NCBI GenBank assembly: GCA_025449905.1
Contig: JANWIN010000004.1
Location: 24,656-88,655 of the forward strand
DNA from: Candidatus Saccharimonadales bacterium
GTDB taxonomy: Bacteria; Patescibacteriota; Saccharimonadia; Saccharimonadales; JANWIN01
Direction: 5' to 3'
Length of the DNA: 64,000 bases
A program made the translations under genes and the position numbers. Below the pieces are notes generated by a model, which had not been told where the DNA came from, did no database searches, and saw only the letters and a program-made list of their open reading frames with translations. Of the stretch, positions 1,964 through 61,610 are shown one piece after another. The stretch's first letter is position 1; each line of letters opens with the position of its first letter.

Positions 1964-3151
1964 TTAAATTTTTTTACAATAACTACACGTTTCTTCAACC
2001 TCATCGGCAGCTAGCCATTGGCGAGATGCTTTCCACCAGGGCTCCAGGTCTCGGTATGCCATAAACTCAGCAAAGCGGCGGGCTAGCCAACCTAACCGGC
2101 CGTATAAATGCCATTTCTTATATCTAACTGCTGCCCAGTGCGGTCCAATTGGCGTTAAATAGACAGGTTCTTTGGGGTTATATGTTTCAAGAGGCTTCTC
2201 CTTGATACGACGCAGAATATTTTCAGCCACAAAATGACCATCACGAATAGCGGTTTGAGCCATGCCGCTAAATGGTGTATCGGCATTGTCGCCAATTACA
2301 AATATGTCCACTTCAGCTTCAAGATGTTCATTAACCTCCACTCGTCCGTTTTCGCTAAGCTTAAATTTATTAGCTGCAAAGAATGGATTATTAGTAACGC
2401 CGGCCGTCCAAATAACTGTGTGGCTTTTAATCGGCACGCCCTCAACAATTAAGTCGTCAAGAGTCTCGCCACTAACTTTCTTGTCTAGTAATAACCTGAC
2501 ACCCAGCCGCTTTAATCTTCTAGCTGCTACCTGTGAAGTACTGCGAGGCATATTTGGCAAAACCCGCCGGTTGGCTTCAACCAGCTTTATTTGGACTACG
2601 CGGTTTTTTAAGCAGTGTTTCTTTAAAATTTGTTTGATATAGCCGGGTAAAACTCCTGCCAGCTCTACGCCTGTTGGTCCACCACCAACCACAATGTAGT
2701 TGTAGTCAGGCTGGCCGGTATCTATTAACTGTTTGTGCAAATGAGTCTTCAACTCCATAGCTTTTTGGTAGTTCTTTATGCCGAAAGAATATTCTTCCAG
2801 ACCCTTTATGCCAAAATAATTAGTCACTGCGCCAATAGCTAAAATCAAGCTGTCGTATTTAAGCTTTTTGCCACTACTTGTTACCAGGTATTTATTTCTG
2901 CGATCTAACTTCGCAACCTTAGCCACTACTAGTTTGACTGGAATCTTGTCGAATAAATCCTTGAGGCTCATCATCGATTGGGCTCGGCTGCCACCGGTGG
3001 CAGCATGATACAAGCTAGCATGGTAATGAAAGTCTTGATAATCGGAGACCAGAACAACTTCAACTTGATTACTTTTTGCTAATTCCTGAGCAGCTTTTAC
3101 ACCGCCAAAACCGCCGCCGGCAATTATCACTTTATGCTTTTGATTTTTCAT
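1964..3151 (-). CDS. ndh: type II NADH dehydrogenase (NDH-2) / FAD-dependent pyridine nucleotide-disulfide oxidoreductase
   Basis: N-terminal KVIIAGGGFGGVKAA Rossmann motif and second dinucleotide fold IVVGGGPTGVELAG; about 395 aa. Confidence 0.8.
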   Translation of the reverse strand: MKNQKHKVIIAGGGFGGVKAAQELAKSNQVEVVLVSDYQDFHYHASLYHAATGGSRAQSMMSLKDLFDKIPVKLVVAKVAKLDRRNKYLVTSSGKKLKYDSLILAIGAVTNYFGIKGLEEYSFGIKNYQKAMELKTHLHKQLIDTGQPDYNYIVVGGGPTGVELAGVLPGYIKQILKKHCLKNRVVQIKLVEANRRVLPNMPRSTSQVAARRLKRLGVRLLLDKKVSGETLDDLIVEGVPIKSHTVIWTAGVTNNPFFAANKFKLSENGRVEVNEHLEAEVDIFVIGDNADTPFSGMAQTAIRDGHFVAENILRRIKEKPLETYNPKEPVYLTPIGPHWAAVRYKKWHLYGRLGWLARRFAEFMAYRDLEPWWKASRQWLAADEVEETCSYCKKI

Positions 3152-3216
3152 AAATTCTCTTATGATTATACAAGATTACACTTGATAATTAGTGTTAGTT
3201 AAAGTAAGTATTAGTT

Positions 3217-3942
3217 ATGACTCAAAGTAAATTCAAAGCCTTAAACCCAAAAGTTGTATTAGGCGTAGCTGCTCATCCCGATGATCTGGACTTTGGCGCA
3301 GCCGGCACAATGGCCAAGTGGGCCAGAGGCGGTGCCGAAGTTTCATATTTAATACTAACTGACGGCTCACGCGGCTCAGCAAATAGAAAAGTCTCGCCCG
3401 AGGAACTAGTCAAAACCCGCAAACATGAGCAAGAAGATGCCGCCAAAGTGCTAGGTGTCAAAAATGTCTTTTTTTGTAAATGGGAAGATTGCTGCCTTGA
3501 GTGCCATGATGACGTAAAACGCGAAATTGTTAGGGAAATCCGTGAGCTCAAGCCAGATGTTGTGGTGACTATGGATCCAACAATGATATATGCTGCCGAG
3601 ATTGGCTTTATAAATCACTCTGATCATCGGGCTGCCGGGCAAGCTACGCTGGACGCTGTTTTTCCGCTGGCACGTGATCATCTTAGTTTCCCAGAGCTTT
3701 TAAAAGAAGGCTTGGAGCCCCATAATACACCCACCCTACTATTGATTAATTTAGAAAAGCAAAATTGGTTTGAAGATATCTCGAACCAAGTTGAGGCTAA
3801 ATTAAAGGCATTACAGACACACCAGAGCCAGTTACCCGAAATGGAACAGGCTTTAAAAATGATAAAAGAACTAGCTGTTGATATGGGCAAAAAAGCCGGT
3901 TGTGAATTTGCCGAAGGCTTCATGCGAATTGATATCCGCTAA
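3217..3942 (+). CDS. PIG-L/LmbE family N-acetylglucosaminyl deacetylase (BshB/MshB-like)
   Basis: VLGVAAHPDDLDFGAAGTMAKW...LILTDGSRGS signature of the PIG-L family. Confidence 0.8.
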   Translation: MTQSKFKALNPKVVLGVAAHPDDLDFGAAGTMAKWARGGAEVSYLILTDGSRGSANRKVSPEELVKTRKHEQEDAAKVLGVKNVFFCKWEDCCLECHDDVKREIVREIRELKPDVVVTMDPTMIYAAEIGFINHSDHRAAGQATLDAVFPLARDHLSFPELLKEGLEPHNTPTLLLINLEKQNWFEDISNQVEAKLKALQTHQSQLPEMEQALKMIKELAVDMGKKAGCEFAEGFMRIDIR

Positions 3943-3958
3943 CTGCTACAATTAGGGG

Positions 3959-4348
3959 ATGATTGAGGTTAGCGATGAAGAATTTGAGCAGATTGTTAGA
4001 AGCGCGGTTGATGACATTCCTGAAAAATACGGCCGGCATATAAAAAATCTGGCTTTTGTGGTTGAAGATGAACCCAACGACAACCAACGACAGCGACTTA
4101 AGCTGCATCCTGGGACTAGCCTGTTTGGACTGTATGAGGGTATACCGCTGACTAAACGTGGTGCCGGTTATAACTTGGTACTACCTGATAAGGTTACTAT
4201 TTTTAAGAAGCCAATTTTAAATGCTTGTCATACTAGCGAGCACGTTGAAATTCTGGTGCGGCAAACTATTTGGCATGAAGTGGCTCATTACTATGGATTA
4301 GACCACGGAGATATTGACCGTTTAGAAAATAATAGCGCTAAAGATTGA
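3959..4348 (+). CDS. zincin-like metallopeptidase family protein (DUF1025-like)
   Basis: HEVAHYYGLDH metal-binding motif in a small acidic protein typical of this family. Confidence 0.7.
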   Translation: MIEVSDEEFEQIVRSAVDDIPEKYGRHIKNLAFVVEDEPNDNQRQRLKLHPGTSLFGLYEGIPLTKRGAGYNLVLPDKVTIFKKPILNACHTSEHVEILVRQTIWHEVAHYYGLDHGDIDRLENNSAKD

Positions 4349-4936
4349 CTTAGTTAAGTTAAACAACTCTTCGGCCAGCTTAATCTCGAGCACAATTCCG
4401 CCGGCGCCTATTAGGCAACCGATTACATAAAGTAGCGCATCTTCTAAAATTAGCGACAAACTAACTATTACTACCCCCAACGCCGGCAGTGTATCAAGCC
4501 AGGAAAAAGGCGGTGCTACCAAGGCCCCAAAGGTCAAAACAAAAATCACTAAACCGCTAACTCGCAGGAAATTCGGATCATTCAGCAGCCCGCTAAGTCT
4601 TGGTTTTGAATAATGCTCAAGCCATTTTACTCTTTTTGTTAAAGCAGGTAATAATTTAGTTTCGGTTTTTGATGAAATTTTTAGATTGCGCCATTTTTTG
4701 GGAATCCAGATTACTCGACGGCCAATAATAAGTTCAACCGATAAAACCATAACAATAATTTCAAAAATATGCGTCAGTCCGCCAGTCGGAATTGGCAGGG
4801 CCGGTATAGCCATGAGGATTAGAATAATAAAAGCAAAACTCTTTTCGGCAAACACACTTTCCAAATTAGCTAAAGTCTTGGGGCTATGGTCTTTTAACCA
4901 AGCCTCTAATTGCTCACTGAAAGGGCGATCATCCAT
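4322..4936 (-). CDS. ExoD-like exopolysaccharide synthesis membrane protein
   Basis: ALPIPTGGLTHIFE motif and hydrophobic topology resemble the ExoD family. Confidence 0.55.
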   Translation of the reverse strand: MDDRPFSEQLEAWLKDHSPKTLANLESVFAEKSFAFIILILMAIPALPIPTGGLTHIFEIIVMVLSVELIIGRRVIWIPKKWRNLKISSKTETKLLPALTKRVKWLEHYSKPRLSGLLNDPNFLRVSGLVIFVLTFGALVAPPFSWLDTLPALGVVIVSLSLILEDALLYVIGCLIGAGGIVLEIKLAEELFNLTKSIFSAIIF

Positions 4937-4974
4937 AAACCTATATTAGTTGACAAGGTTAAAATAAGAAAACG

Positions 4975-5385
4975 CTAACGGGGTGCAGCAGGCGGAGCTG
5001 GTTTATCATTATCGTATGATTTCACAATATCAATTAGATCACTGGGGATAGTGTTAGCCTTAATTATGTAGCCGTCGGCATTACTTTCTGCTGCTTCCTT
5101 GGCCAAGTTTTCTTGGGCTAAATTGGTTAGCAGGATAATTTTAACTTTTTGACTGGCATGCTTAGGGTTAGTCCGCAGCTCCTTTAAAATTTCCATGCCC
5201 GATTGACCTGGCAACATGATGTCAACGAAAATAATATCCGGACGATACTGCTCTAATATTTTGTAAGTAGCCGGGGCATCATTAACTACCTGAATTTCAT
5301 AGCCGGCACCAGCAAAAGCTGTCCGATACAGCTCTCGAATCATAAAATCATCTTCAATTAGTAGGATCTTTTTTGAGCCAGCCAC
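4975..5385 (-). CDS. single-domain response regulator (CheY-like receiver)
   Basis: ILLIEDD...DIIFVDIMLPGQSGME...K at the conserved position; no output domain; overlaps the upstream histidine kinase by about 30 nt. Confidence 0.85.
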   Translation of the reverse strand: MAGSKKILLIEDDFMIRELYRTAFAGAGYEIQVVNDAPATYKILEQYRPDIIFVDIMLPGQSGMEILKELRTNPKHASQKVKIILLTNLAQENLAKEAAESNADGYIIKANTIPSDLIDIVKSYDNDKPAPPAAPR

Positions 5386-7627
5386 GTGTCCCCATTACTT
5401 GGTTAGTTTCCGACACTAGTTTAGCATGTTTGGCATCGTCATAAATCGGCAGGGTGAAGTAAAAAGTTGAACCTTTGCCAGCTTCGGACTCAACCCCAAT
5501 CTCTCCATGGTGAAGTTCGATGATGGCTTTTGATATATAAAGACCCAGCCCAGTGCCTCGGTTACCGGTTGTTAAACTATGCTCGACACGGTAAAACTTG
5601 CGGAACAACCGCGACTTGGCTTCTGGCGGAATTCCTAGACCATAATCTTTCACGCTAACTCTTGCCAAATCATCCTGGCGAGTAACATTAATCTCAATTT
5701 GGCCATTATCGGGCGAATATTTAATAGCGTTATTAAGTAAGTTATTAATTACTTCGCTAAGAGCCGAGGCGTCAGCGGGCACTGTAATCTCTGGCTCTTT
5801 AGCGCTGAAAATTAGTTTTTGGTTTTTCATTTTGGCACTCGATTGCTGTTGATTACATAAGCTATTGACTAGTTTCGGCAAGTCAACCTTGGTCATATGA
5901 ATCTCCATTGAACCGCGTTCCACCCTGGACACGTTTAATAAGTTGTTTATTAAGGTACTAAGTTGATCGGTGCCGATTAAGGCTCGATGCAGACGCTCCT
6001 GCCCATCGGGCGGTAATTTTGGTGCGTCCTGGTTCTTCATTAGCTCCAAATAACCACGCAGGAAAGTCAATGGTGTTCGCAGCTCGTGTGCAGCAATGGC
6101 CACAAAATCAACTTTCATAACTTCCAATTCGCGGCTTTGTGTTAAGTCGCGGATGGTGATAATGGCGCTAACATCACTGGTCTTATTTTCTAGAATTACC
6201 ACCACCAGGTTTACGTAGGAAGCTTTATTTGGGCTGGGCACTACTAAGCCGTTATATAAATAAATACCCGGTTTGTCATAATCAATTTGGACAGCCTTAT
6301 CATCGTGCAGCCATTGGTAGGCATGTTCAATTTGCTGACCCATTATTTCCGTGTCACTGCGATCCAGTAGCTTAGCAGCCGGCGGGTTAATTGATACAAT
6401 TTTATGGTTGTTATCAATAGCCACAATACCGTCGCTAACGCTTTTAATAATGCTGTTAAGTTTATTATGCTCAATTTCTAGAGTCAGATTTTTATCTTTT
6501 AGACTGCCAATCATCAGCGATAAGTTGCCACCCATTTTATTGAAGTTTTCAGCCAGGTGACCCAGCTCATCATTCGTTTTTACCGGCAGCTTATAGTTAA
6601 AATCACCAGAGCCTAGCCGGTCAGCGCCAGCCGACAAACTCTGTATGGGTGTTAAGATCTGTTTTCTCATTAAAAAGCTCAAAACAAAGACTAAGACAGC
6701 GGCGCCTATAAAAACACTAATTCCCAATCTATAGAGGGCTGATACTTCTTTATAGACACTGGAAATTGGCTCTTCGGTTATTACTCCCCACTTTGTGCGG
6801 CTTATTTCTTTGGAGCTGCTAAGCACAGCTTGGCCTCTTTCAGAAGTAGACTGATGTTGATCATTCTTGCCTTCCAAAAAATGGTTAACCTGATGCACTG
6901 CGGCTACCACCTGATTATTGCGTCTAAATTTATCATCCGGGTGGGCAATTAAGTTACCTTTATCGTCAACCACGTAAGCGTAACCTTGCTCGCCAATTTT
7001 AATGGACAACACTGAATCCCAAAGATTACCCAAGCTGTAATTACCAATAAGGACGCCGGTAATGTCGCTTTGGGAGCGATATTTGCCGAACTCGGCTGTT
7101 GATAAGTGCGACAAATCTTGCTGCTGATTAAACTTTATTAAAGGCACAGCAATCAATACGTGTGGCGATCGATTCTCGTCATATATTACCGGGCCGATAT
7201 ATTCTTTGCCGGCTAGAAAAGTCGCTGCTCTAAAAGCATCGCTGGCGGCAATGTTTACATGTTTTTCAATCAGCCCACTTCGATTAACAACTACTAATTG
7301 TTTGCCTTGTTTATTGGCAAGAGTTATATCTAATAAATCACGGTCGCCTTTTATGTAGGTTGCTAGATTTAGGCTGGCATCTTTAGTGTCCAATAGTCGA
7401 ACGGCGCTAGTCTGAGATTCAAATATAAGATTATCAATTTTAGAGCCCAGAAAATTATCAACTCGTTCAGCAGCTTGAGTGGCTGCCAGATTTTGACGAA
7501 CAAAGGCTTCACGTTTTAATTGCGATTGAGTGGTGAAGATCAAAGCTAAATTAACAACCAATAACGGCCCCAAGGAAACAAATAAAAACAAAAGCAAAAT
7601 TTTATGCCTTATTTTTAAGCCATGCAT
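5354..7627 (-). CDS. sensor histidine kinase (TM, extracellular Cache-like region, HAMP, PAS, HisKA, HATPase_c)
   Basis: H-box AAHELRTPLT, N-box NLLNNAIKYS, G-boxes DYGLGIP/GTGLGL, N-terminal TM segment. Confidence 0.85.
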   Translation of the reverse strand: MHGLKIRHKILLLFLFVSLGPLLVVNLALIFTTQSQLKREAFVRQNLAATQAAERVDNFLGSKIDNLIFESQTSAVRLLDTKDASLNLATYIKGDRDLLDITLANKQGKQLVVVNRSGLIEKHVNIAASDAFRAATFLAGKEYIGPVIYDENRSPHVLIAVPLIKFNQQQDLSHLSTAEFGKYRSQSDITGVLIGNYSLGNLWDSVLSIKIGEQGYAYVVDDKGNLIAHPDDKFRRNNQVVAAVHQVNHFLEGKNDQHQSTSERGQAVLSSSKEISRTKWGVITEEPISSVYKEVSALYRLGISVFIGAAVLVFVLSFLMRKQILTPIQSLSAGADRLGSGDFNYKLPVKTNDELGHLAENFNKMGGNLSLMIGSLKDKNLTLEIEHNKLNSIIKSVSDGIVAIDNNHKIVSINPPAAKLLDRSDTEIMGQQIEHAYQWLHDDKAVQIDYDKPGIYLYNGLVVPSPNKASYVNLVVVILENKTSDVSAIITIRDLTQSRELEVMKVDFVAIAAHELRTPLTFLRGYLELMKNQDAPKLPPDGQERLHRALIGTDQLSTLINNLLNVSRVERGSMEIHMTKVDLPKLVNSLCNQQQSSAKMKNQKLIFSAKEPEITVPADASALSEVINNLLNNAIKYSPDNGQIEINVTRQDDLARVSVKDYGLGIPPEAKSRLFRKFYRVEHSLTTGNRGTGLGLYISKAIIELHHGEIGVESEAGKGSTFYFTLPIYDDAKHAKLVSETNQVMGTRGWLKKDPTN

Positions 7628-7703
7628 TACACTTATGGTATTACTGAATCCACTCTGCTACAACCTTGACAAACGGTAACAATAATTAATATGCTTATGC
7701 TAG

Positions 7704-8330
7704 ATGAATCCACAAAACAATAACCCTGGTCCGCTAACTAATACTAATAGCCAACCAATGCAACCACCACCGCCTGTAGAATTAACTGCACCCCAACCTA
7801 AAAAGAAGCCTAGATCTAAAGGATTAGTTGGCATACTTATTATTCTAGTATTTATTAGCAGCTTAGCCGGAGCCTATGCTCTAGGTAGAAATTCTAAAAA
7901 ACCAGCCGTGGTAACCAATCAGACGCCCTTTAAAACACTGTCTTTGCCGCCAGAAGCCATCGTCGCGGCTGAATGTGAGCCTGGACGCGGCAAGCAGTAT
8001 ATTATCCCTAAAGACATACCAAAGGGCGGGCCGCTTTATGATGTCAATAATAACCGTGTAATAGCGATTGAATATCTTATTAAGGTGCAGGACCTTCTAA
8101 CTAAACCCGATTCATTAACCGACAAAATTACTGATCTTACAAAAAACTATCAGGTAGACCACTTCAGCATAGTGCCTACCGCACCACACGCCGGCGAAAA
8201 CTCCCAGCACATTCACTTAATTATGTTTGTCGTTTCTAAAGATGAGGCTAAAACTATAACTTGCGGTCAAAGTTCTTCTGACGCTACCAATAGTGAAGGC
8301 ACAACTGAAGAGATGATGCATATGCATTAA
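7704..8330 (+). CDS. hypothetical membrane-anchored protein (Pro/Gln-rich N-terminus, one TM segment)
   Basis: ORF track; TM helix GILIILVFISSLAGAYAL; no family recognised. Confidence 0.5.
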   Translation: MNPQNNNPGPLTNTNSQPMQPPPPVELTAPQPKKKPRSKGLVGILIILVFISSLAGAYALGRNSKKPAVVTNQTPFKTLSLPPEAIVAAECEPGRGKQYIIPKDIPKGGPLYDVNNNRVIAIEYLIKVQDLLTKPDSLTDKITDLTKNYQVDHFSIVPTAPHAGENSQHIHLIMFVVSKDEAKTITCGQSSSDATNSEGTTEEMMHMH

Positions 8331-8338
8331 GTGGTAAT

Positions 8339-8860
8339 CTAAGCTTTTTCAATACGACCGCAGGCTAAACGCGGCCCGCCACTGACACCAGAACCAATTG
8401 CGCCCGTTTTATTCGAGTCAATATTGGCATGCACCATTAATGATGTGCCTTCTTTGGGTTGCAAGATTGAAACTGGCCCGTCAGACAAAGTAACTCGAGT
8501 TGTAATAGTCTCTAAGACGCCACTACCATTTTTATCAATCGTAATCATCGGTAAATCACCGGCGTGGTAGCCATGGTTGGTGTCTGGATCACTATTACCG
8601 CTGGGTCCGGGGTCAAAATGGCCACCGGCGCACTTAAAACCATCGCATTCGCAATCACCCTTTTCGTGAATGTGCACGGCGTGCTTGCCGGGCTTTAACA
8701 TTTTGGGGTTACCGTTTAGCTCCAGGTGGATATGAACATATTTCCAACCGCCAATATCGTATTCAGTAAAAATTGCTGAACCATCAACATCCGGGCCGCT
8801 AAGCGTCACTTTAGCTCTGGATGATACTTTTTTATTGTCAGCTGTCAGGTCAACTTTCAT
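8339..8860 (-). CDS. sodC: Cu/Zn superoxide dismutase
   Basis: HAVHIHEKGDC...GGHFDP...HAGDLP...GGPRLACG metal-ligand motifs of the SodC family; no obvious signal peptide. Confidence 0.85.
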   Translation of the reverse strand: MKVDLTADNKKVSSRAKVTLSGPDVDGSAIFTEYDIGGWKYVHIHLELNGNPKMLKPGKHAVHIHEKGDCECDGFKCAGGHFDPGPSGNSDPDTNHGYHAGDLPMITIDKNGSGVLETITTRVTLSDGPVSILQPKEGTSLMVHANIDSNKTGAIGSGVSGGPRLACGRIEKA

Positions 8861-9050
8861 TTATTCCTCCTCCAAGCCACTACTAAAAGTAAGGCACTTA
8901 AAATAACTAGCAATACTATGGGCAAGTTCATGCTGATTGTATGAGCCGGCGTATGGTGGGCAAAAATCACTGGGCCTCCTTAATTTATTTAATTGTAACA
9001 CTGCGCGCTTAGCAAATTCTGTCACAAATTTAACATGCTATAATCCAGCC

Positions 9051-10070
9051 ATGATTAGACTGCCGTCGTATCTCTACCGAGATGCTCGGATGGGTGAACT
9101 GTTGGAACTGTTTATGGTATCAGCCGTAACAGCCTTGCTCGTTAATCGCTTTATTTTGTTTCTACTGGGCTATCCATCTATAGGCGGCAGCAAGCTGCAT
9201 ATTGCCCATATGCTTTGGGGTGGCCTCCTAATGCTGATTGGTTTAATTTTAGTCTTTGTTTTTTTGGGTTACCGGGTGCGCCAACTAGCCAGCATTGTTG
9301 CTGGCGCTGGCTTTGGCCTATTCATTGACGAGCTGGGTAAGTTCATAACTCGTGATAACAACTATTTCTTTCAACCGACGATTGCTCTAATTTATCTAAT
9401 TTTTGTTATCCTATTTATCATTTTTAGAAGCTTAAGCAGCCAACGGCGACTAAGCCAGCAGGAGTACCTAATGAACGCCTTAAGCTTGTCAGAGGAGACG
9501 ATAATGATTGATTTGTCTAGTATTGAGCGCCAACAAGCGCTTAGCTATCTTGAAAAAGCCGATCAATCAAACCCGTTGGTTAAGGCCTTAACTGAGGCTC
9601 TAAATTCGACTAAAACAGTGGATTCCGATAATCGGGCCTGGCTTAAAAAATGGGCTGACGGAGTAGTTAACTTTTATAATAAATTGATTCATCTGCCTTA
9701 CGCGGCCAAAGTTATTGATGGGGTTTTTATAATCAAAGCCCTGATTTTCCCATTGCTATTAATACTTGGACCGATTGATAGTTTAAAAAACGGTATATCC
9801 GGCAAGCTGGATTGGATGACGGTTTTAGAACTTATTAGTTCACTGGTAGCAGGCGCCTATGTGCTAGCCGGCGTGCTTAAAATTAAAAAATCACGCTTAA
9901 AGGCTTATGAGCTTTTTTCTAAGTCACTGTTGATTGATATTTTTATCACCCAGTTTTTTGCATTTTACGTCAGCCAGTTCCAAACCCTGTATGTCCTAGC
10001 TATAAATGTGGCTCTATACTTTGCCGTTCGCTTCCTCATTCAGCAGGAAAAACGCAAACTCGTTACTTAG
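9051..10070 (+). CDS. hypothetical polytopic membrane protein
   Basis: ORF track; start moved to the ATG at 9051, which lies 8 nt after a TATAAT box (leaderless-like); multiple TM helices. Confidence 0.5.
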   Translation: MIRLPSYLYRDARMGELLELFMVSAVTALLVNRFILFLLGYPSIGGSKLHIAHMLWGGLLMLIGLILVFVFLGYRVRQLASIVAGAGFGLFIDELGKFITRDNNYFFQPTIALIYLIFVILFIIFRSLSSQRRLSQQEYLMNALSLSEETIMIDLSSIERQQALSYLEKADQSNPLVKALTEALNSTKTVDSDNRAWLKKWADGVVNFYNKLIHLPYAAKVIDGVFIIKALIFPLLLILGPIDSLKNGISGKLDWMTVLELISSLVAGAYVLAGVLKIKKSRLKAYELFSKSLLIDIFITQFFAFYVSQFQTLYVLAINVALYFAVRFLIQQEKRKLVT

Positions 10071-11004
10071 TATTTTCACAAACGACAACAAGTTGCTCTA
10101 CACTAACTTTTTTATAGCCGCGATTACGTACTTCTAAATCAAAATCAGACTTATTAACTTCTTCTATAGCGTCAAAGACAACGGCTGGGCTTGGGCGGGG
10201 CAATCGTTTATTTACTCTTTCTTTTAACTTCATGCTATGCAGAAGAGACATTATGACCCATTGATAGTCACCCCATCCCTCTGCAGGCACCCGCAATTCT
10301 GCGGGTTCAGCTGATTCCTGGGACTGTTCAATATAACTCCTTATGGTTACTCTAGCAGCTAAATCTGCAATCACTTTATCGGGACCGTGTTTCTTGTACC
10401 AGTTTTCCGGGAGTTCGTAATCAGGGAATTTTTCACTTATTACTTTTTCGGCATCTTCCCATGCTTCTTGATGGTAGCTTTCACCTCTTGTAGCTTCGAC
10501 AATTAAAGCGCCTCGTTTTACTCCGCGAACTAAATTATCAATCGTTTTGCCATTTTCATCTATATGATAACTAGCCATAAGTTTATAACCTGCATCGTAT
10601 TGGCTCTCTTCCCCTATAGGACGAGTAATGTCCGCTCTTCTAAGCACGATAGTTGAATGTCCTGCTTCGTGTGCGTCTAGCAGGGCAACATGTTCAGAGG
10701 CATGGTCTAATACGGCTTCTGAATAATCAACCCCAACAATTCTTAAACCGCTGGGGTGCTGACTGTAAAGACGTCTTATAAAATAGCCATCTCCACATGC
10801 TAGGTCAATAACTCGCCCATCTGTAATGTCGAAGGGAATTTCCGCAATTTCTTGATAAATATTACGGCGCGGCACAGCATACTTGAGAGTAAATCCCCGA
10901 CGTATTCCTGCATACATAAAAGAATAGTCATACTGATCATGAGATACTTCACTTGGGCGACTCAACATAGCCGCAGGATCTCCCACACTTTCACTAGCTG
11001 ACAT
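10063..11004 (-). CDS. class I SAM-dependent methyltransferase
   Basis: Motif I VIDLACGDGYF followed by a post-I acidic residue; about 313 aa. Confidence 0.7.
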   Translation of the reverse strand: MSASESVGDPAAMLSRPSEVSHDQYDYSFMYAGIRRGFTLKYAVPRRNIYQEIAEIPFDITDGRVIDLACGDGYFIRRLYSQHPSGLRIVGVDYSEAVLDHASEHVALLDAHEAGHSTIVLRRADITRPIGEESQYDAGYKLMASYHIDENGKTIDNLVRGVKRGALIVEATRGESYHQEAWEDAEKVISEKFPDYELPENWYKKHGPDKVIADLAARVTIRSYIEQSQESAEPAELRVPAEGWGDYQWVIMSLLHSMKLKERVNKRLPRPSPAVVFDAIEEVNKSDFDLEVRNRGYKKVSVEQLVVVCENTK

Positions 11005-11080
11005 ATTTTATACAATATCAAAAAAATTATATTGCAAGAACTGCTTAAGTAATGCCATAAATAGGGTAAAATAAGGCTAT

Positions 11081-11752
11081 ATGTCTGTAGAGGCTCTGTC
11101 AGAACTTCGAAAAGTTTTAAGTGAGGGCAGGACTTATGAAATACAAAAAGGCCAGGTTATTCTATCAACAGAAGATCGAGAAGTCTTTAATTATATCTCT
11201 TCAGGTTTTGTTAAGCGTTACCTAATTTCTCACAAAGGGGATATTGGCGTGCAGATTATTTACGGGCCGGGTGATTTTTTCCCTCTTAGCCGTGTATATA
11301 AAGTTTTATTTAATCAAGACCTTTATAAAGGACCAGAAATTTATTACTACGAAGCTATGACAGACCTTGAGCTTAGCACTATTGACGCTGCAGAATTAAA
11401 AGAAAAAGTAACCGGCAGTATGTTATTGCACCGTGCTCTTCTAATAGAGGCCGGCAAGCGGCTAGAAACGACTCTTTGGGGGCTGGAAAATATCATGATG
11501 GAGAATTCTCAAAAAAGGGTAGCTCACCAATTGGCCTATTATGCTCGCCATTTTGGCAAAAAAACCAGCAAAGGAGTTGAAATTAAAATCCCTCTAACCC
11601 ATCAAGACTTAGCCGACATCCTTAGTGTTGCGCGTGAGACGGTTTCGCCGGCAATGAAGCAACTTAGAAAAGAGGGCTTGATTAAAACCAATAGACACAT
11701 AGTAGTGCCAAATATAAATAAGCTAGAAAAAGAAGCCTATACAAGCGAATAG
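11081..11752 (+). CDS. Crp/Fnr family transcriptional regulator
   Basis: cNMP-binding-like N-terminal domain and C-terminal HTH (THQDLADILSVARETVSPAMKQLRKEGLI). Confidence 0.8.
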   Translation: MSVEALSELRKVLSEGRTYEIQKGQVILSTEDREVFNYISSGFVKRYLISHKGDIGVQIIYGPGDFFPLSRVYKVLFNQDLYKGPEIYYYEAMTDLELSTIDAAELKEKVTGSMLLHRALLIEAGKRLETTLWGLENIMMENSQKRVAHQLAYYARHFGKKTSKGVEIKIPLTHQDLADILSVARETVSPAMKQLRKEGLIKTNRHIVVPNINKLEKEAYTSE

Positions 11753-51570: not shown

Positions 51571-52818
51571 ATGAGCAGGATGTTATCCGAACTTCTCGGG
51601 GTTGCCGAGCCTAACTTAACTAGAATAATCAGAGGCTTGGAAGTGGCCAGTGGCCACCCCAATATTGATGTGCGTTTAACAGCCGAAGTGATTGGTTTGG
51701 CGCGGTTGAAAGTCAGGGAAATGGGACTAGATGTTGATGATACTAGCGGGCGAGAACTTTATCATAGCTTACAACAAATGATAGCCAAGCATGATGAGTT
51801 TTTAGCCGAACACTTAGAGGCCAAGTCTGACGGTGAAGTTAACTTGATAGGTTTAAAGAAGACCATTGATAAGCTAGATTTGCCCAGAGGCTGCTGGACG
51901 CTTAAAAATTCCGCCGCCAAAAGATTACTTAAAACTTCTCCGCCCAAGCAAGCTATGAAAAAGCTTGGCTACAAGTCGATAGATTCAATGCTCAAGCGTG
52001 AACCGCCGGCCAATATCTATCTAGCCATTCAGTTGGCCGAGTCGGGTATGTGGCAACAAAAATTTATCAAAAGCTATAAAGGTTTAAGCCCTAGCGACTT
52101 TACTAAAAGTGAAGTCAAAGTCCTGATTGTTAACGAAGACCACCTACTAGCTACTAGCCGTGATTATGTCAGACGTCACCGCCACAATATTGTTAGCCTT
52201 AAAGAATTTGGCATTATTGCACTGTTGCCATTACCAACCAAGTCTTTACCGGGCGCACATTTAACAATCCTAACGATGCTTATCAGCGCTCTTAATGATA
52301 TGCGGGCCCATAGTACTTATCTCAAACTCCAGCAGGTCAAGCCCAACTTTGGCGCTTTGGTCAGCAAGACCTTGCAGGGCCAGCCAGTTGGTCTGACAGT
52401 TGCTGGCCAGCACTTGCCATGGCGAATAATTCAGCAATACCTTAGTCGCCTGGAGATCATTCATCATCCGGATATTTTTGGTCCGCACGTCCAACCCGAG
52501 GATGTCGCTTGGCATAAACCCGAGGAGGTTCTGTTTCGTTTGGAGCCAGCCTTAAAGTTTTGGGAAAATGTTGATTTTGTCGGTGCACTTTATAAAGACC
52601 AGCCAGTATCGTTTAATCTTATGGATAGCGCACTTAGTTATTGCAACTCTTTGGCTTATACCAATCAAGCAACTCACTACTTCCGCGATAGCTTACTTAC
52701 CGAGCTTTACTTACGCTATTTACTGGAGACGCCACTGGGCGAGCGGGCACTTAATAAGCTGGATGATGGGCTGGTCGGTGAGCATGTTGATTTATTTGAG
52801 GGGGTAGAAGTTGGCTAA
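51571..52818 (+). CDS. hypothetical protein
   Basis: 415-aa ORF in the same operon as pfkB; no motif recognised. Confidence 0.5.
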   Translation: MSRMLSELLGVAEPNLTRIIRGLEVASGHPNIDVRLTAEVIGLARLKVREMGLDVDDTSGRELYHSLQQMIAKHDEFLAEHLEAKSDGEVNLIGLKKTIDKLDLPRGCWTLKNSAAKRLLKTSPPKQAMKKLGYKSIDSMLKREPPANIYLAIQLAESGMWQQKFIKSYKGLSPSDFTKSEVKVLIVNEDHLLATSRDYVRRHRHNIVSLKEFGIIALLPLPTKSLPGAHLTILTMLISALNDMRAHSTYLKLQQVKPNFGALVSKTLQGQPVGLTVAGQHLPWRIIQQYLSRLEIIHHPDIFGPHVQPEDVAWHKPEEVLFRLEPALKFWENVDFVGALYKDQPVSFNLMDSALSYCNSLAYTNQATHYFRDSLLTELYLRYLLETPLGERALNKLDDGLVGEHVDLFEGVEVG

Positions 52819-53380
52819 GTACCAAATTTGCATATCAGGGTCGCACACCGGCAAAAGTGTTGAATCCGGTAAGATTTTAGCCCAAGAATTAGGGCGAGCC
52901 GTAGCTAAGGGCGGGCATACCTTACTGACCGGCGCCACTATAGGACTACCTCATTTGGCCTCCGAAGCTTATAAAAAAGCTGGCGGTGAATTCAGTATTG
53001 GTATTAGTCCGGCTTCCTCTAAGGTCGAGCACGTTATGAAATATCGCTTGCCGGTGGAGACCTATGATGCTGTGCTTTACAGTGGAATGCACTATGCTGG
53101 CCGCGATGCCTTTTTAATTAATTCCAGCGATGCGGTCTTGAGCGTTGGCGGGCGGATGGGAACGTTTCATGAATTTGCCATCGCTGTTGAAACTGATACG
53201 CCAATTGGCTTTTTGCGCGGCGCTGGAGGCGTAAGCGATGAAATAAAAAATGTGCTAGAAGCGACTGGCGAGGGCAGCAACAAGCACGTCGTTTTTGCCG
53301 ACAGCGCCGAAGAACTTTTAAAAAAGATTGAGCACATACTAGATACTGATTTTGCCAAGTACCGCGACATCTATAAATAA
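52811..53380 (+). CDS. TIGR00725/LOG-like (SLOG) Rossmann-fold protein
   Basis: YQICISGSHTGKS ... GATIGLPHLASEAYKKAGG ... GGRMGTFHEFAIA pattern of LOG/DprA-like Rossmann proteins. Confidence 0.6.
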   Translation: MAKYQICISGSHTGKSVESGKILAQELGRAVAKGGHTLLTGATIGLPHLASEAYKKAGGEFSIGISPASSKVEHVMKYRLPVETYDAVLYSGMHYAGRDAFLINSSDAVLSVGGRMGTFHEFAIAVETDTPIGFLRGAGGVSDEIKNVLEATGEGSNKHVVFADSAEELLKKIEHILDTDFAKYRDIYK

Positions 53381-54075: not shown

Positions 54076-54765
54076 ATGAAAAAACTATCACAAAACGGAC
54101 CTGCCCAGCCAGTTGGAAATCAACAGGCTGGGTTTACGGTAATCGAAGGGTTACTAATCTTGGTAGTTGTCGGAATTATAGGCGGAGTTGGTTGGTTTGT
54201 GTTGAAATCTAAGAACGATTCTGAAAATACGCCTAAAGTTCAGACTGATCCTGAGTACATACCTAATGTTACGCAAAATAAAGTTGATCCTTATGCCCGG
54301 TGGAAGACCTACCACAATGATAAATATGGTTTCAGCATAAAGTACCCAGAGGGCTGGAAAACAATTGACATGAATCAGAATGATATTATTGGATTTGCAT
54401 CCGCAGACATAAAGTTTCCTAATGCTGAAGAAGGCCAGCTTAACCTTAATCCGCTAAGAGGTTCATGGCTTGAATTGTATGCCGGCAAAAACGTTGCCCA
54501 TGAAGACGGCTCAAAAGATTCCTACGAGTCAGATTTAAAAACCAACTCTGAAGCAGTAAAGGCCTTTAGCGGCAATTACAAGACAATAAAGATAGACGGA
54601 TACAACGCAATCTGGAGTACCATTTCACCAGAAGGAAGCTATATTGAAGCGAATACTTACGCTAATAATAATTACTATCTTTTTAGGTTTAATGTGCCGG
54701 ATGAAGAAAATAAAAAATCACAAGATTTGTTTAAAAAAATCCTAGCAAGTGTGGACTTAGAATGA
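54076..54765 (+). CDS. type IV pilin-like protein, paralogue 2
   Basis: MKKLSQNGPAQPVGNQQAG|FTVIEGLLILVVVGIIGGVGWFVL. Confidence 0.75.
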   Translation: MKKLSQNGPAQPVGNQQAGFTVIEGLLILVVVGIIGGVGWFVLKSKNDSENTPKVQTDPEYIPNVTQNKVDPYARWKTYHNDKYGFSIKYPEGWKTIDMNQNDIIGFASADIKFPNAEEGQLNLNPLRGSWLELYAGKNVAHEDGSKDSYESDLKTNSEAVKAFSGNYKTIKIDGYNAIWSTISPEGSYIEANTYANNNYYLFRFNVPDEENKKSQDLFKKILASVDLE

Positions 54766-55424
54766 AAAAGCTATCACAAAACGGGTTTACGGCAGTAGAA
54801 GGTCTCTTGATTTTGGTAATTGTTGGGATTATCGGCGGCGTAGGTTGGTTTGTCTGGAACAATAGATCAGCTGGAGTGAAGCCAGCGGCCGACAAAAGCT
54901 CGCAGTCAATTAAAGCTGTTTCTGCAAAAGATACCACGAAGACTTTCTCTTATTCCTATCCGAGCAGTTGGAAGCTACAAAAATTTGTTTGGCAAGATTG
55001 CTGTGAAGGACCACCTAAAAGTGAGCCAGATTGGAATAAAACCTCACAAACGATAACACTACAGAATAAAAGCAATGATAAAGCAGAAATCATTATTAAT
55101 GGCTTTACGAACTTTCCTGATTCGGTTGACAGAGAAATCGAGTCAGAAATAGAGTCAATTGATAAAGACCAATTCAATACATATTCAAAGGTTACCATCA
55201 ATGGCTACAAAGGGATTAAGCATGTGCTTGATTTCGTCGGCCCGAGTGACGCAGAAAAGTACAAGGATACAACCTACATAATTTTTCATGGAAATGATAA
55301 GGTCAATCTTTACTTTAGGGAACGATATAGCAACGCAACACTAAATGGTGAGAATGATTTTGATGCAACAAACTTATATTCCGATTTTGAAACTATTGTA
55401 AACTCAATTAAATTTAATAGCTGA
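54762..55424 (+). CDS. type IV pilin-like protein, paralogue 3
   Basis: MKKLSQNG|FTAVEGLLILVIVGIIGGVGWFVW; CC pair in the C-terminal domain. Confidence 0.75.
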   Translation: MKKLSQNGFTAVEGLLILVIVGIIGGVGWFVWNNRSAGVKPAADKSSQSIKAVSAKDTTKTFSYSYPSSWKLQKFVWQDCCEGPPKSEPDWNKTSQTITLQNKSNDKAEIIINGFTNFPDSVDREIESEIESIDKDQFNTYSKVTINGYKGIKHVLDFVGPSDAEKYKDTTYIIFHGNDKVNLYFRERYSNATLNGENDFDATNLYSDFETIVNSIKFNS

Positions 55425-56161
55425 TGATGAAAAAACTATCACAAAAAGGATTTACAGTTATCGAAGGCCTATTGATTTTACTAATTGTCGGGATCATTGG
55501 TGGCGTCGGTTGGCATGTTCATAAGACAAAAGATGATACTAGCAATACTTATGACAATTCTGTTAATACAGGCGAACCAAGCAAAAACACCATAGATTCT
55601 TTCGAGGAATGCAAAAAAGCCGGAAATCCGATCCAAGAAAGCTATCCTGAAAGATGTAGTGCTGGGAGTAAAAGCTTCACAAACATAGCTCAAGAATCCA
55701 AAGATTGGCTGCAATATGTTGCCAAGGATGGGACATACAAAGTTAAACTCAACGATGGTTGGGTTATAGACAAGCTTAAATCTTCAGACATTTTACTAAC
55801 TTTTAATAACGAAAACCTAAAACCTAAAGCAGGCAATCGGGCACTGGTAAAAACCGTAAGTGACGGACCCGGTGAATATTACGACAGTATTCTATTTATA
55901 AAAGTAGAAAATGATCGCTTTTCAACTGATAGCTCTACAGAGACTCCAGTCTTTAATACGTTGAGCGGCATAAAAGTCTACAGAACCAAAAGCGTTGAGG
56001 ATAACGATGGCCAACCTTTACCGAAAGGTACAAAAAGGTATTACTACGCAATTGGTCACAAAAATAAAACTTTCACAGTACTTTACAGTGTTCAACCGGG
56101 TGAGACAGACTACCATGAAGAAGTAGAAAAGGTAGTACAGACCGTAGAACTCACATACTAA
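55424..56161 (+). CDS. type IV pilin-like protein, paralogue 4
   Basis: MMKKLSQKG|FTVIEGLLILLIVGIIGGVGWHVH; C-terminal domain with a Cys pair. Confidence 0.75.
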   Translation: MMKKLSQKGFTVIEGLLILLIVGIIGGVGWHVHKTKDDTSNTYDNSVNTGEPSKNTIDSFEECKKAGNPIQESYPERCSAGSKSFTNIAQESKDWLQYVAKDGTYKVKLNDGWVIDKLKSSDILLTFNNENLKPKAGNRALVKTVSDGPGEYYDSILFIKVENDRFSTDSSTETPVFNTLSGIKVYRTKSVEDNDGQPLPKGTKRYYYAIGHKNKTFTVLYSVQPGETDYHEEVEKVVQTVELTY

Positions 56162-58669: not shown

Positions 58670-59125
58670 CTATTTTTTGAGGTAGCCGAGTTGGTGAAGG
58701 ATTTTGATAGTTGGCGGAGAGATAATTTCTAGCTTCGCTAATTCTTCTCTTGAAAACCAGTGAAGATCGGAAAGGTCATCTGTAGGATCGATGTTTATTT
58801 TATTGGCAACTTCTTTCATGGCAATTTTATAATCGAAAAATTTCATCTTTACTAGAACCCGCTCACCGGTGTTGCGCAGAGTCTTTTCGCTTTCGCCATG
58901 ATGGATTTCTTTGAAAGGCGTAATTTCGGCATCTTTTATATCAATTCCAGTTTCTTCCAGGGTTTCTCGAATCAATGCCTGAAGTTTTGTTTCGTCTTCT
59001 TCAATCCCACCACCTGGCACAACCCATAGCCCTTCATAGGCGCCGGTTTTGCCGAACAATACCTTGCCATCTTTAGAAAATATAAAAGCTCCAACAATAT
59101 CACGCTCAATAGTACGCATGCACAA
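58670..59125 (-). CDS. NUDIX hydrolase
   Basis: Nudix box GGGIEEDETKLQALIRETLEETGI. Confidence 0.75.
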   Translation of the reverse strand: MCMRTIERDIVGAFIFSKDGKVLFGKTGAYEGLWVVPGGGIEEDETKLQALIRETLEETGIDIKDAEITPFKEIHHGESEKTLRNTGERVLVKMKFFDYKIAMKEVANKINIDPTDDLSDLHWFSREELAKLEIISPPTIKILHQLGYLKK

Positions 59126-59512: not shown

Positions 59513-60943
59513 ATGAGCATATCTGATGTATCTCCTCGTGATTTCTTTTCTGAGACACCACCGCCTCGTATTATTGGGACTGAGTGCGAGTACAATGTAC
59601 AAAACTATTCAAAACTTTCCAGCAATATTAAACTTGTTGATTATATAAGTGATAGAGCTCTTGAAAATTGCGGAATAAGTCATTACGGGGGCTATTTAGA
59701 TAATGGCGCTCGCCTGTACTACGATGTCGGCCATTTAGAATATGCGACACCTGAATCATTAGGGCCACGTCAGGCAGCAGCAGCAGATTTAGCTGGCGTA
59801 TTAGTAATGAGAGAAGTTATAAAAAATAGTGAATACCCGCATAGCGGCGTTTTTCGTCTGGCCGGTTCATATCTGGAGCGGAATCCAGAAGCATCTGACG
59901 CACAGGGTGTAACCAGCGGTTATCACGAAAACTATTTAATACCGCGAAATATTACCCGGAGCCCTTTTATCAATATGCTTTTACCGGCACATCTGGCTAG
60001 CCGCATATGGTCTGGTGGAGGAACGCTTAAAACAAGTTTTGTTTTCTCACAGAAAGTTTGGGGCGTATTTGGACCACCCATTAGTGAATCATATGGCCGT
60101 AGGACCAGTCATCAACATAAACCAATGGTATTACTACCCACCGCAGCAATGGACAGCGATGTATTGGGCGACCCTAAGTGGGCGAGAGCTGAAGTTCGTT
60201 TTGGAGATGCCGGTCTGTCGCCAGCAAGCAGATTTCTGAGCTTAGCTACGACATCATTAGTGTTAAGAATTGTAGAACATAGAAAAAAATTGGACGATCA
60301 CCGTCTTTGGGCAGTAGATTTTAAAAACCCAGCCGATGCAGCTCATTTATTTGCTAGTGACCTAAGCCTTAAAGACACTGCTCCGACGACTGAAGGTAAA
60401 AGATATACAGCCCTAGATATGCAGGAAATCCTTGCAGGCTTGGCATTCGACTTAAGTATGGAAATAGACCTCCCTCCAGACGAAAGCCTAGCTTTAGCAA
60501 TTTGGCCCGATATTATCGCGAAAATGAAGGCCGCTAAACCAGAAAAAGGAGATTATGGTCTGTTGCCCAGCGAGCTGGATGTTGCAGCTAAGCATGCTTA
60601 TCTATCTCGCCATTTTAAGCCAAAAAATTTGCACCGGTCTAATGCGCCTGCTGCTTGGGCGAACTTAATATGGGATAGAATTGAGCCGGCTGGTGGCGGT
60701 ACTTTATGGTGGCGGAATCATCCATCTAAACTAGTTCCCGGTCATGAAATTGATGCGCTGACTGTGAGTCCTCCACAAACTCGGGCAGCTCTTAGGTCTA
60801 GATATATACAAGATTATGGCGACAGAATTAGCAAAATAAATTGGTGCAGCATTGATATAGTCGATGGAGATGATGTGACTAATAGCGAGAGCACTAAAGT
60901 ACAGACTGTCGCACTGCCCGACCCATATTTGGCTTTCTTATAA
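59513..60943 (+). CDS. PafA/Dop family Pup ligase/deamidase homologue (carboxylate-amine ligase fold)
   Basis: RIIGTECEYNV, NGARLYYDVGHLEYATPE and GYHENYLIPR align with the PafA/Dop N-terminal catalytic blocks (RIMGIETEFGV / NGARLYLDVGSHPEYAT / GCHENYLIVR); 476 aa. Confidence 0.8.
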   Translation: MSISDVSPRDFFSETPPPRIIGTECEYNVQNYSKLSSNIKLVDYISDRALENCGISHYGGYLDNGARLYYDVGHLEYATPESLGPRQAAAADLAGVLVMREVIKNSEYPHSGVFRLAGSYLERNPEASDAQGVTSGYHENYLIPRNITRSPFINMLLPAHLASRIWSGGGTLKTSFVFSQKVWGVFGPPISESYGRRTSHQHKPMVLLPTAAMDSDVLGDPKWARAEVRFGDAGLSPASRFLSLATTSLVLRIVEHRKKLDDHRLWAVDFKNPADAAHLFASDLSLKDTAPTTEGKRYTALDMQEILAGLAFDLSMEIDLPPDESLALAIWPDIIAKMKAAKPEKGDYGLLPSELDVAAKHAYLSRHFKPKNLHRSNAPAAWANLIWDRIEPAGGGTLWWRNHPSKLVPGHEIDALTVSPPQTRAALRSRYIQDYGDRISKINWCSIDIVDGDDVTNSESTKVQTVALPDPYLAFL

Positions 60944-60950
60944 GTTTAGG

Positions 60951-61223
60951 CTACTGACCATTAACCTGACGGAAACCATCAATAAAATCTTGAGGATTAC
61001 CAACTTCTAGAAGCCCATCAATTTCAGTCAATAATTCATCAACGCTCGCAGTTACCTTGTCTTCATTTTCGTCTAAGACATCATCAATGTCATCCATCCA
61101 CTCATCAGCTTTTGTTGCCAGTTGTGCGCCGCGCACTGCTGTTTCGCCGGCATTTGTAGCCACATCTGCGCTTTCTTCTTCGGTTCTTGTCTCACTTTTT
61201 GGGCGGTGTATTCTTTCTGACAT
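60951..61223 (-). CDS. Pup-like ubiquitin-like modifier (Pup/UBact family), C-terminal ...QVNGQ
   Basis: WMDDIDDVLDENEDK ... QDFIDGFRQVNGQ parallels Pup DDLLDEIDDVLEENAEDFVRAYVQKGGQ; acidic, predicted disordered N-terminus; terminal Gln; convergent with the PafA/Dop homologue 8 bp away. Confidence 0.65.
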   Translation of the reverse strand: MSERIHRPKSETRTEEESADVATNAGETAVRGAQLATKADEWMDDIDDVLDENEDKVTASVDELLTEIDGLLEVGNPQDFIDGFRQVNGQ

Positions 61224-61319
61224 AATAACTCCTTTATTTTTGATAATTGTATATAACAGTTCTGTTTTTTGAAAGCATAAACATCACTGAATTTGAGGAT
61301 GAGTTATAATTATCACATT

Positions 61320-61610
61320 ATGGCAAAGTTTACACGCGAGGATGTTTTAAAGCTGGCCAAATTAGCCAAGCTGGAATTATCTGATGATGAAGTGGGCAGT
61401 TTTGCCGTCGAGTTAAAGGAGATACTTGGTTATGTTGAACAACTCCAAGATGTTGACATCGAAGGATTGGAGCCAACTTCGCAGGTTACCGGCCTCACGA
61501 ATATTACCAGAGCAGATGAAGTGGTTGACTACGGCGTCACGCCCCAAGAACTGCTTAAAAACGTGCCAGCTGTCAAAGATGGCCAAATAAAAGTTAAGCG
61601 AGTGCTATAA
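61320..61610 (+). CDS. gatC: Asp-tRNA(Asn)/Glu-tRNA(Gln) amidotransferase subunit C
   Basis: About 96 aa; LAKLAKLELSDDEV ... typical GatC; start at the ATG at 61320 with a GAGGATGAG RBS. Confidence 0.8.
   Translation: MAKFTREDVLKLAKLAKLELSDDEVGSFAVELKEILGYVEQLQDVDIEGLEPTSQVTGLTNITRADEVVDYGVTPQELLKNVPAVKDGQIKVKRVL

Follow-up and report, generated by a model that had tools for sequence, protein, structure and literature searches.

Pupylation is treated as an actinobacterial, proteasome-linked process that needs two opposing paralogous enzymes, Dop and PafA. The actinobacterial Pup-proteasome system (e.g., that of Mycobacterium tuberculosis) comprises Pup, Dop, PafA, Mpa, and PrcAB. Corynebacterium glutamicum, which has Pup, Dop, PafA, and ARC, carries out pupylation without a 20S proteasome; its ARC disassembles pupylated ferritin, a non-degradative outcome (PMC12288473). 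Hecht et al. list sporadic homologs of the enzymes in several phyla, together with a single-copy Dop/PafA homolog of some Planctomycetes that is reported to align partly with the Dop-loop, is 29-31% identical to Dop and PafA, and served as the outgroup in their 2021 study; their list holds no homolog from the Candidate Phyla Radiation (CPR) (PMC7947786). In the UBact systems of Gram-negative and candidate phyla, represented here by four Poribacteria loci (L016-L019; compared loci are referred to by L numbers), a Pup-like tag likewise accompanies a Pup-ligase-family enzyme outside the Actinobacteria. The DNA considered here, hereafter the window, is a 64-kb stretch of contig JANWIN010000004.1 from a Candidatus Saccharimonadales bacterium. 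It carries a gene for a Pup-like modifier of 90 amino acids convergent with a gene for a 476-amino-acid enzyme of the PafA/Dop family, and this gene pair is real. We lean toward reading it as a self-contained two-gene pupylation module native to Saccharibacteria, in which one enzyme would both deamidate and ligate a Gln-ended Pup; the dual activity of the enzyme, its targets, and what becomes of the tagged proteins are matters that we infer.

Both open reading frames (ORFs) lie where the original prediction, made without database searches, had placed them, with stop codons 7 nucleotides (nt) apart, and both match the families that it named. The enzyme scores 165.2 bits against Pfam Pup_ligase PF03136 (cut-off 25), and the modifier 41.3 bits against Pfam Pup PF05639 (cut-off 27; E=3e-10), each over the curated cut-off. 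The enzyme has the beta-sheet cradle and C-terminal domain of the Dop/PafA fold, and the three blocks on which the prediction had relied (RIIGTECEYNV, NGARLYYDVGHLEYATPE, and GYHENYLIPR) are the counterparts of three Dop/PafA elements: the GhExE motif, the strand bearing the catalytic Asp, and the His that ligates Mg. With the NCBIfam model TIGR03687 the modifier reaches 28.7 bits, under the cut-off of 41.45, and Pup chains in the PDB match it at E=0.006-0.06. In the phmmer alignment with M. tuberculosis Pup DDLLDEIDDVLEENAEDFVRAYVQKGGQ (chains 7px9_G and 3m91_B), the last 30 residues of the modifier, VDELLTEIDGLLEVGNPQDFIDGFRQVNGQ, are in register. The tag has the Pup pattern of two short helices and a terminal Gly-Gln, and its gene stands beside that of a Dop/PafA homolog.

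The tag shares its family, its acidic helices, and the terminal G-Q with actinobacterial Pup, from which it differs in its length of 90 amino acids, a duplicated helix motif, and an NGQ end; the genome, moreover, belongs to the CPR and not to the Actinobacteria. The Pup-like C-terminus had been recognized correctly, but the segment DDIDDVLDEN, which had been taken as its in-register helix, is an extra upstream copy, the in-register copy being VDELLTEIDGLLEVGNPQDF. In an alternative PDB alignment (3m9d_G) it is the upstream copy that is matched, with a gap of 23 residues. This second copy of the acidic helix motif makes up most of the tag's extra length. The same two-copy architecture is found at L001, L002, and L023, and a single copy at L003, L005, L024, and L030. 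All eight Pups that adjoin enzymes of the same clade end in Gln (as GGQ, NGQ, or PGQ). The NGQ ending, earlier noted as atypical, is a real variant that recurs at L003 and L023, the other clade Pups ending in GGQ or PGQ, and the terminal Gln implies, as had been argued, a need for Dop-type chemistry. One clade Pup bears the NCBI name [quoted passage not shown]. The exact 90-residue sequence of the window Pup is missing from the protein collection, where three other window proteins, including the enzyme, are present; the gene was therefore probably uncalled, or called with another start, in the source annotation. It is no chance ORF, since a Pup ORF is kept at the same position beside the enzyme gene in seven other loci. 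The tags of the Poribacteria UBact loci end in ...YRQRTG[QE], adjoin proteasome subunits, and have E>0.4 with the Pup hidden Markov model (HMM), whereas the window tag matches Pfam Pup and has neither the UBact C-terminus (...Y[RK]QR[TS]G[QE]) nor proteasome neighbors.

The enzyme can be classed with neither Dop nor PafA; it is a third type and sits in a separate clade. Its scores of 125.1 bits with the NCBIfam Dop model TIGR03688 and 113.1 bits with the PafA model TIGR03686 fall under the equivalog cut-offs of 492.3 and 551.3. The enzymes of the two-enzyme loci L010, L012, L013, and L014 are likewise under these cut-offs; at each of these loci one enzyme scores higher on the Dop model and the other on the PafA model, at 200-450 bits. 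The window enzyme is 22-26% identical to Dop and PafA. Alignment with both had been proposed earlier as a check for the Dop-specific loop. Profile alignments place no Dop-loop (40-65 residues before strand beta2, as defined in PMC8599861) in the window enzyme, and ExE and NGxR, which stand about 80 residues apart in Dop-like sequences and about 33 in PafA-like ones, are separated by about 36 in the clade. At the positions that discriminate Dop from PafA (Table 1 of PMC7947786) the enzyme is a mosaic of both types. The D-V-G by the catalytic Asp and the Y-A-T are PafA-like, the next Pro is Dop-like (Ala in PafA), and the Ser of the PafA D-V-G-S is missing. The alpha-loop is longer, with a conserved R-R-T, and resembles that of neither Dop nor PafA (PafA: H/W/E/G/S/S/A/R/S). 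A clade-specific N-terminal extension, P-x-D-F-x-S-[DE]-x-P-P-x-R, precedes the first strand. A C-terminal D-P-[YF] was considered as a PafA marker and rejected, being present in Dop-like sequences too.

The Mg ligands listed for the Dop of A. cellulolyticus are Glu8, Glu10, Tyr92, Glu99, His155, and His241 (PMC8599861). Profile alignments to PDB sequences map them to E24, E26, Y69, E76, H138, and E227 of the window enzyme, and the catalytic Asp94 to D71. The GhExE motif, the catalytic Asp, and five of the six Mg ligands are thus shared with the actinobacterial enzymes, and E24 and E26 are invariant across 62 clade members; the sixth ligand is Glu227 in place of His241, a conservative metal-binding change. 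Canonical-type sequences in the set (Dop-like, PafA-like, Poribacteria UBact-associated, and those of L009/L015/L020) read R-[LVF]-H-[VLI]-[ITV]-x-G-D at this site, whereas the window clade reads R-x-E-V-R-x-x-D; the Poribacteria UBact enzymes carry RLH where the clade has E-x-R. By hmmalign, the His241 position holds Glu in 179 of 182 clade sequences, with Arg two residues on in 176; among 23 canonical-type matches it holds His in 18, with Thr, Ile, or Val two residues on in 20. In Dop, His241 and Arg227 hold the catalytic phosphate (PMC8599861). Arg227 is kept in 20 of the 23 canonical-type sequences versus 31 of the 182 clade sequences, and in the window enzyme its position falls on Pro209 by hmmalign and on Met213 by MAFFT. 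Compared with actinobacterial Dop and PafA, the enzyme therefore differs in the Glu for His241, the Arg two residues on, the Arg227 not kept, and the longer alpha-loop with R-R-T.

The E-x-R motif occurs in the wider superfamily. The glutamine synthetase GlnA of Escherichia coli carries RRIEVRFPD, an E-V-R-x-x-D strand, and E. coli YbdK carries GTVEVRVMD, an E-V-R-x-x-D read by eye. An hhalign comparison of the clade profile with GlnA aligned the E-V-R-x-x-D segment as its sole match, a short local alignment with E=0.0017 and a low probability of 16%; profile comparison of the clade with YbdK gave no usable alignment. Because both of these superfamily outgroups have E-x-R, the motif is probably a retained ancestral state, and H-x-[ITV] a derived state shared by all other Pup-ligase-family enzymes, although this reading uses one motif and no rooted tree, and convergence could produce the same pattern. 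Ligases of the glutamine synthetase/YbdK type differ from the window enzyme in acting on free glutamate or glutamine instead of a protein C-terminus, and in having no Pup-binding C-terminal domain. A bolder proposal, which we think unlikely, is that these "E-R type" enzymes are a surviving pre-duplication form of the pupylation enzyme, able to handle Gln-ended Pup alone with an active site like that of glutamine synthetase, whether by deamidation followed by ligation or by moving the Gln acyl group straight to lysine, and that pupylation would have begun as proteasome-independent two-gene tagging before Dop and PafA split.

The clade is broad. A word-indexed search returned 86 homologs, the nearest at 50% identity, several of them named in NCBI "proteasome accessory factor PafA2 family protein" [Candidatus Saccharibacteria / Saccharimonadales bacterium]. 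When 1.84 billion cluster representatives were scanned with the clade profile in HMMER, 4,584 matched at E<=1e-3; the top 150, each one 50%-identity cluster, all reach at least 253 bits, and Dop reaches 171 bits on the same profile. The clade holds at least 180 clusters at 50% identity, with 30-51% identity among aligned members, and is typified by metagenome-assembled genomes (MAGs) labeled Saccharibacteria. A neighbor-joining tree places it apart from Dop-like sequences, PafA-like sequences, and a second Saccharibacterial group (L009, L015, L020); the tree is rough (BLOSUM distances, no bootstrap, midpoint root) and serves for clade membership only. The second group consists of single Pup-ligase-family genes in Saccharibacteria MAGs (L015 on a 729,692-bp contig) with the canonical R-L-H motif, in which L015 has Ser for His; their surroundings, out to 10 kb, are free of Pup, ATPase, and proteasome genes. 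The neighbors of the L015 enzyme are an HhH-GPD glycosylase and an RND transporter; two ORFs of about 200 amino acids 5' of it were tried as proteasome subunits and are an HhH-GPD glycosylase and an unassigned protein.

The breadth of the clade bears on the origin of the pair. Cultivated Saccharibacteria live on Actinobacteria, and Actinobacteria have pupylation. The C-terminal 30 residues of the window Pup, and even its MSERI start, resemble actinobacterial Pups, and the original prediction had suggested acquisition from an actinobacterial host. A recent horizontal transfer of this kind is extremely unlikely. The enzyme is too distant from Dop and PafA, at the identity given above; its diverse clade lies apart from every Dop/PafA sequence in the tree; and it retains the E-x-R of glutamine synthetase and YbdK where Dop/PafA-type sequences have H-x-[ITV]. 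The comparison of composition with the flanks, also proposed earlier, finds the enzyme gene native: its GC content is 0.444, versus a mean of 0.445 over 35 window genes (about 43-44% overall), and its codon usage is within 1.6 standard deviations of that of window genes. The depth and diversity of the clade and the native composition therefore disfavor recent acquisition from the host, and this part of the prediction was not borne out. Its assignment of the genome fared better. The window UvrB is 82-93% identical to proteins labeled "Candidatus Saccharibacteria bacterium" or "Patescibacteria group bacterium", which places the contig in Saccharibacteria/Patescibacteria and not in Actinobacteria, and unrelated window genes are 54-65% identical to genes of Saccharimonadales loci. 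Two UvrB matches, P0170 and P0175 (82-83% identity to that of the window), are labeled Candidatus Limnocylindria/Limnocylindrales (Chloroflexota) and probably come from mis-binned Saccharibacterial contigs.

Gene context was surveyed with HMMs for the Mpa/ARC ATPase and both proteasome subunits, built from canonical loci, with representatives verified by Pfam, and run on all stop-to-stop ORFs of the window. No Mpa-like AAA ATPase or proteasome subunit was detected in the 64 kb, and the clade ligase HMM found a single PF03136-type gene there; the single paralog and the lack of proteasome or Mpa genes are therefore as had been described for the window. The same HMMs match all 11 canonical loci (L010-L014, L016-L019, L021, L022); in the 13 related clade loci, taken with 10 kb on either side of the enzyme gene where contigs allow, they match nothing. 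The suggested independence from the proteasome stands for these stretches, and its scope is those stretches rather than whole genomes. Of 12 assessable loci, 8 pair the clade enzyme gene with a neighboring Pup gene (the window, L001, L002, L003, L005, L023, L024/L025, and L030), a count that omits L007 and L008, the L008 contig ending 65 nt past the enzyme gene. The Pup gene is convergent with the enzyme gene, with gaps of -7 to 60 nt, at all of these but L005, where both are on the same strand. Clustering of ORFs over the 14 clade loci finds only the enzyme and Pup to recur; with no Mpa or proteasome genes at these loci, the unit is therefore two genes. Conserved synteny beyond Pup was considered and rejected, the recurring ABC ATPase, GT2, histidine kinase, and SNase-like families being generic. 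Also rejected as an ATPase partner was a 757-amino-acid ORF at 5354-7627 that matches ORFs near the ligases of L005 and L014; it is a histidine kinase. In a sub-branch without an adjacent Pup, the surroundings of the enzyme gene repeatedly include an SNase-like gene and a GT2 glycosyltransferase (L006 12010-12594, L007 5969-6604, L031 11506-12078). At L004/L029, tRNA-Cys and tRNA-Leu follow the enzyme gene.

The window pair can be set against the known systems in turn. Where the actinobacterial system has two enzymes, the window has one, which lacks the Dop-loop; Mpa and proteasome genes are missing from the 64 kb. Pupylation without a proteasome has a precedent in C. glutamicum, which still keeps Dop, PafA, and ARC; none of these extras is seen near the window pair. 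The Planctomycetes homolog is likewise a single enzyme in a non-actinobacterial phylum; the Saccharibacterial clade differs from it in having no Dop-loop and in carrying E-x-R. The Pirellulaceae locus L022 has two ligase-like ORFs and an Mpa-like ATPase. Two of the compared loci lie on contigs labeled archaeal. On JACPJU010000002.1 (L010, labeled Candidatus Aenigmatarchaeota archaeon), positions 5413-11365 encode an Mpa-like ATPase, a Dop-like enzyme, a Pup (...YVQLGGQ), a proteasome subunit, and a PafA-like enzyme; this complete bacterial-type cluster on a DPANN-binned contig is close to the Anaerolineae locus L013, and mis-binning or transfer is possible. On JARVJX010000025.1 (L021, labeled Nitrososphaeria archaeon), an Mpa-like ATPase gene is followed by a Pup-ligase-family gene at 400-3172 of the thaumarchaeon-assigned contig.

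In the proposed mechanism, the C-terminal helices of Pup would bind the groove of the enzyme, which would set the side chain of the terminal Gln beside ATP and Mg. The Gln side-chain oxygen would then attack ATP at its gamma-phosphate and give an acyl-phosphate-type intermediate. For Dop, with its active site like that of glutamine synthetase, attack on ATP by the side-chain oxygen of PupQ or PupE has been proposed to form a phosphorylated intermediate, and PafA forms the same glutamyl-phosphate, which is resolved by lysine (PMC8599861). In the window enzyme the intermediate might be resolved by water, yielding deamidated PupE that the same enzyme would ligate, or directly by a target lysine, yielding the isopeptide bond. 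Since all associated Pups end in Gln and one family enzyme is seen, that enzyme would have to process the amide. Twenty substitutions, combined with removal of the Dop-loop, turn Dop into a ligase (PMC7947786). A Dop-loop-free enzyme with PafA-like residues by the catalytic Asp and a metal and phosphate site like that of glutamine synthetase could plausibly perform both steps. Glutamine synthetase has a gamma-glutamyl-transferase reaction, and by analogy direct acyl transfer from Gln to lysine might occur here. The tag probably acts without a proteasome, because neither an Mpa ATPase nor a 20S proteasome is encoded nearby; its outcome would be non-degradative or regulatory, or substrates might be passed to another unfoldase or protease.

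The same residues speak to a reading in which the enzyme solely hydrolyzes, as a deamidase or depupylase, or in which what is left is a relic system whose Pup is non-covalent or inactive. We regard this as distinctly improbable: the Dop-loop is absent, D-V-G and Y-A-T by the catalytic Asp are PafA-like, the phosphate-holding residues R227 and H241 of Dop are not kept, and the strong conservation of the enzyme, together with the C-terminal G-Q of Pup in eight loci, argues against decay.

Several observations weigh against a two-gene module with a bifunctional enzyme. The replacement of His241 and the loss of the phosphate-holding Arg227 could alter the chemistry unpredictably. No Pup gene lies within 10 kb of the enzyme at 4 of the 12 assessable loci (L004/L029, L006, L026/L027, and L031), for which reason the enzyme may have other roles. 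The view covers 64 kb of a 126.5-kb contig and 10 kb on either side in relatives, and a second paralog, an Mpa-like ATPase, or a proteasome could lie elsewhere. The N-terminus of the window Pup (MSERI..., G-x-x-A-V) resembles those of Mpa-engaged actinobacterial Pups, a hint of a partner. Finally, CAYWMQ010000026.1 (L014, labeled Saccharibacteria) has a canonical-looking AAA ATPase/Dop-like/PafA-like cluster at 1733-6784, with no Pup detected in 10 kb; either some Saccharibacteria have the classic system or this contig is mis-binned. The last three of these points would suit an ordinary multi-component pupylation system seen in part, in which a second enzyme, Mpa/ARC, and perhaps a proteasome are encoded elsewhere in a genome visible in part only, and the enzyme described here performs one of the reactions; so would the second group of single RLH-type ligase homologs in Saccharibacteria MAGs. 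We consider such a system unlikely, though a contender to be taken seriously. An Mpa-type ATPase, proteasome subunits, or both lie within 10 kb of the ligase in 11 of 11 canonical loci and in 0 of 14 clade loci. The clade enzyme is equally distant from Dop and PafA, unlike one partner of a pair, and Saccharibacterial genomes are small.

The N-terminal half of the tag, supposedly disordered, has features of its own. A [VAL]-G-x-[AST]-A-[VT] motif is found there in the window Pup and at L001, L005, L023, L024, and L030, and M. tuberculosis Pup presumably has a similar stretch, AGSTAAGQ; the MSER... start of some Saccharibacterial Pups is common to the Propioniciclava Pup of L011. The conserved motif hints at a binding partner. 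The likeness to actinobacterial tags, close mimicry at the C-terminus in particular, and the episymbiotic life of Saccharibacteria on pupylating hosts would also fit a module aimed at the host, in which Pup, the enzyme, or both are delivered into an actinobacterial cell to disturb its pupylation-proteasome system. This is highly improbable: no secretion signal or linked secretion genes are seen at the loci, the neighborhood is one of housekeeping genes, and the enzyme is highly diverged from those of the hosts. The features of the locus are collected in the table.

Table. Features of the Pup and Pup-ligase-family gene pair, with positions in the window
Feature	Position	Strand	Basis or remark
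Pup-ligase/deamidase-family enzyme gene, 476 amino acids, "E-R type" clade, neither Dop nor PafA	59513-60943	+	
Pup-like modifier gene, 90 amino acids, product ends ...FRQVNGQ	60951-61223	-	Pfam Pup 41.3 bits
GhExE ATP/Mg motif G22-T-E24-C-E26	59576-59590	+	Aligns to Dop Glu8/Glu10
Catalytic strand YYDVGHLEYATPE: Y69 Mg ligand, D71 catalytic Asp (= Dop D94), E76 Mg ligand	59717-59755	+	Alignments to Dop/PafA structures
Clade-defining motif R225-A-E227-V-R229, in place of canonical R-L-H-V-I	60185-60199	+	E227 at the position of Mg ligand His241
Pup residues 60-90, VDELLTEIDGLLEVGNPQDFIDGFRQVNGQ, the part in register with actinobacterial Pup's ligase-binding helices and terminal Gly-Gln	60954-61046	-	
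Pup residues 42-59, WMDDIDDVLDENEDKVTA, extra upstream copy of the acidic helix motif	61047-61100	-	
Shine-Dalgarno sequence AAAGGAG, 5 nt 5' of the Pup ATG	61229-61235	-	Read from sequence
Promoter-like TTCAAA-16-TACAAT, 5' of the Pup gene	61246-61273	-	Weak; such sites occur at chance frequency in the region

Promoter and terminator scans of the region returned counts no higher than chance expectation. The flanks consist of a NUDIX gene (58670-59125), a small membrane ORF with no Pfam match, a DUF1653 gene, gatC, and a GatA-like ORF, the last named by its sequence and a 47% match to an ORF of a Poribacteria locus, not by Pfam. Of the gatCAB genes described earlier for this flank, gatB is not visible in the window. 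The mechanical gatC ORF (61293-61610) begins at a TTG (MRMSYNYHIMAKFT...), and an internal ATG (MAKFTRED...) looks like the true start; with it, the divergent Pup and gatC genes would stand about 100 nt apart. Farther away, at 54762-56161 and possibly from 53450, tandem paralogous ORFs begin MKKLSQ[NK]GFT[AV][VI]EGLLIL..., which has the look of a type IV pilin-like N-terminal signal; they have no Pfam match at E<=0.01. The ORF at 52811-53380 encodes a SLOG cluster4 (LDcluster4) family protein (102.6 bits).

Full-text literature searches found no paper joining pupylation, PafA, or "proteasome accessory factor" with Saccharibacteria, Patescibacteria, or CPR. The gene pair is already auto-named in NCBI for Saccharimonadales, as "PafA2 family protein" and "ubiquitin-like protein Pup". 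Its interest lies mainly in the single-enzyme architecture and the ancestral-type active site, and not in horizontal transfer. If the missing parts lie elsewhere in the genome, the locus would amount to an ordinary, if divergent, pupylation system from a new phylum. If the two-gene reading is true, the pair would be a natural minimal system for learning how one active site both deamidates and ligates. The clade would also provide an outgroup with which to root the Dop/PafA tree, bearing on whether the ligase or the hydrolase came first and whether pupylation preceded its link to the proteasome. For the Saccharibacteria themselves, it would suggest protein tagging as a regulatory layer in ultra-small episymbionts, whose biology is little known.

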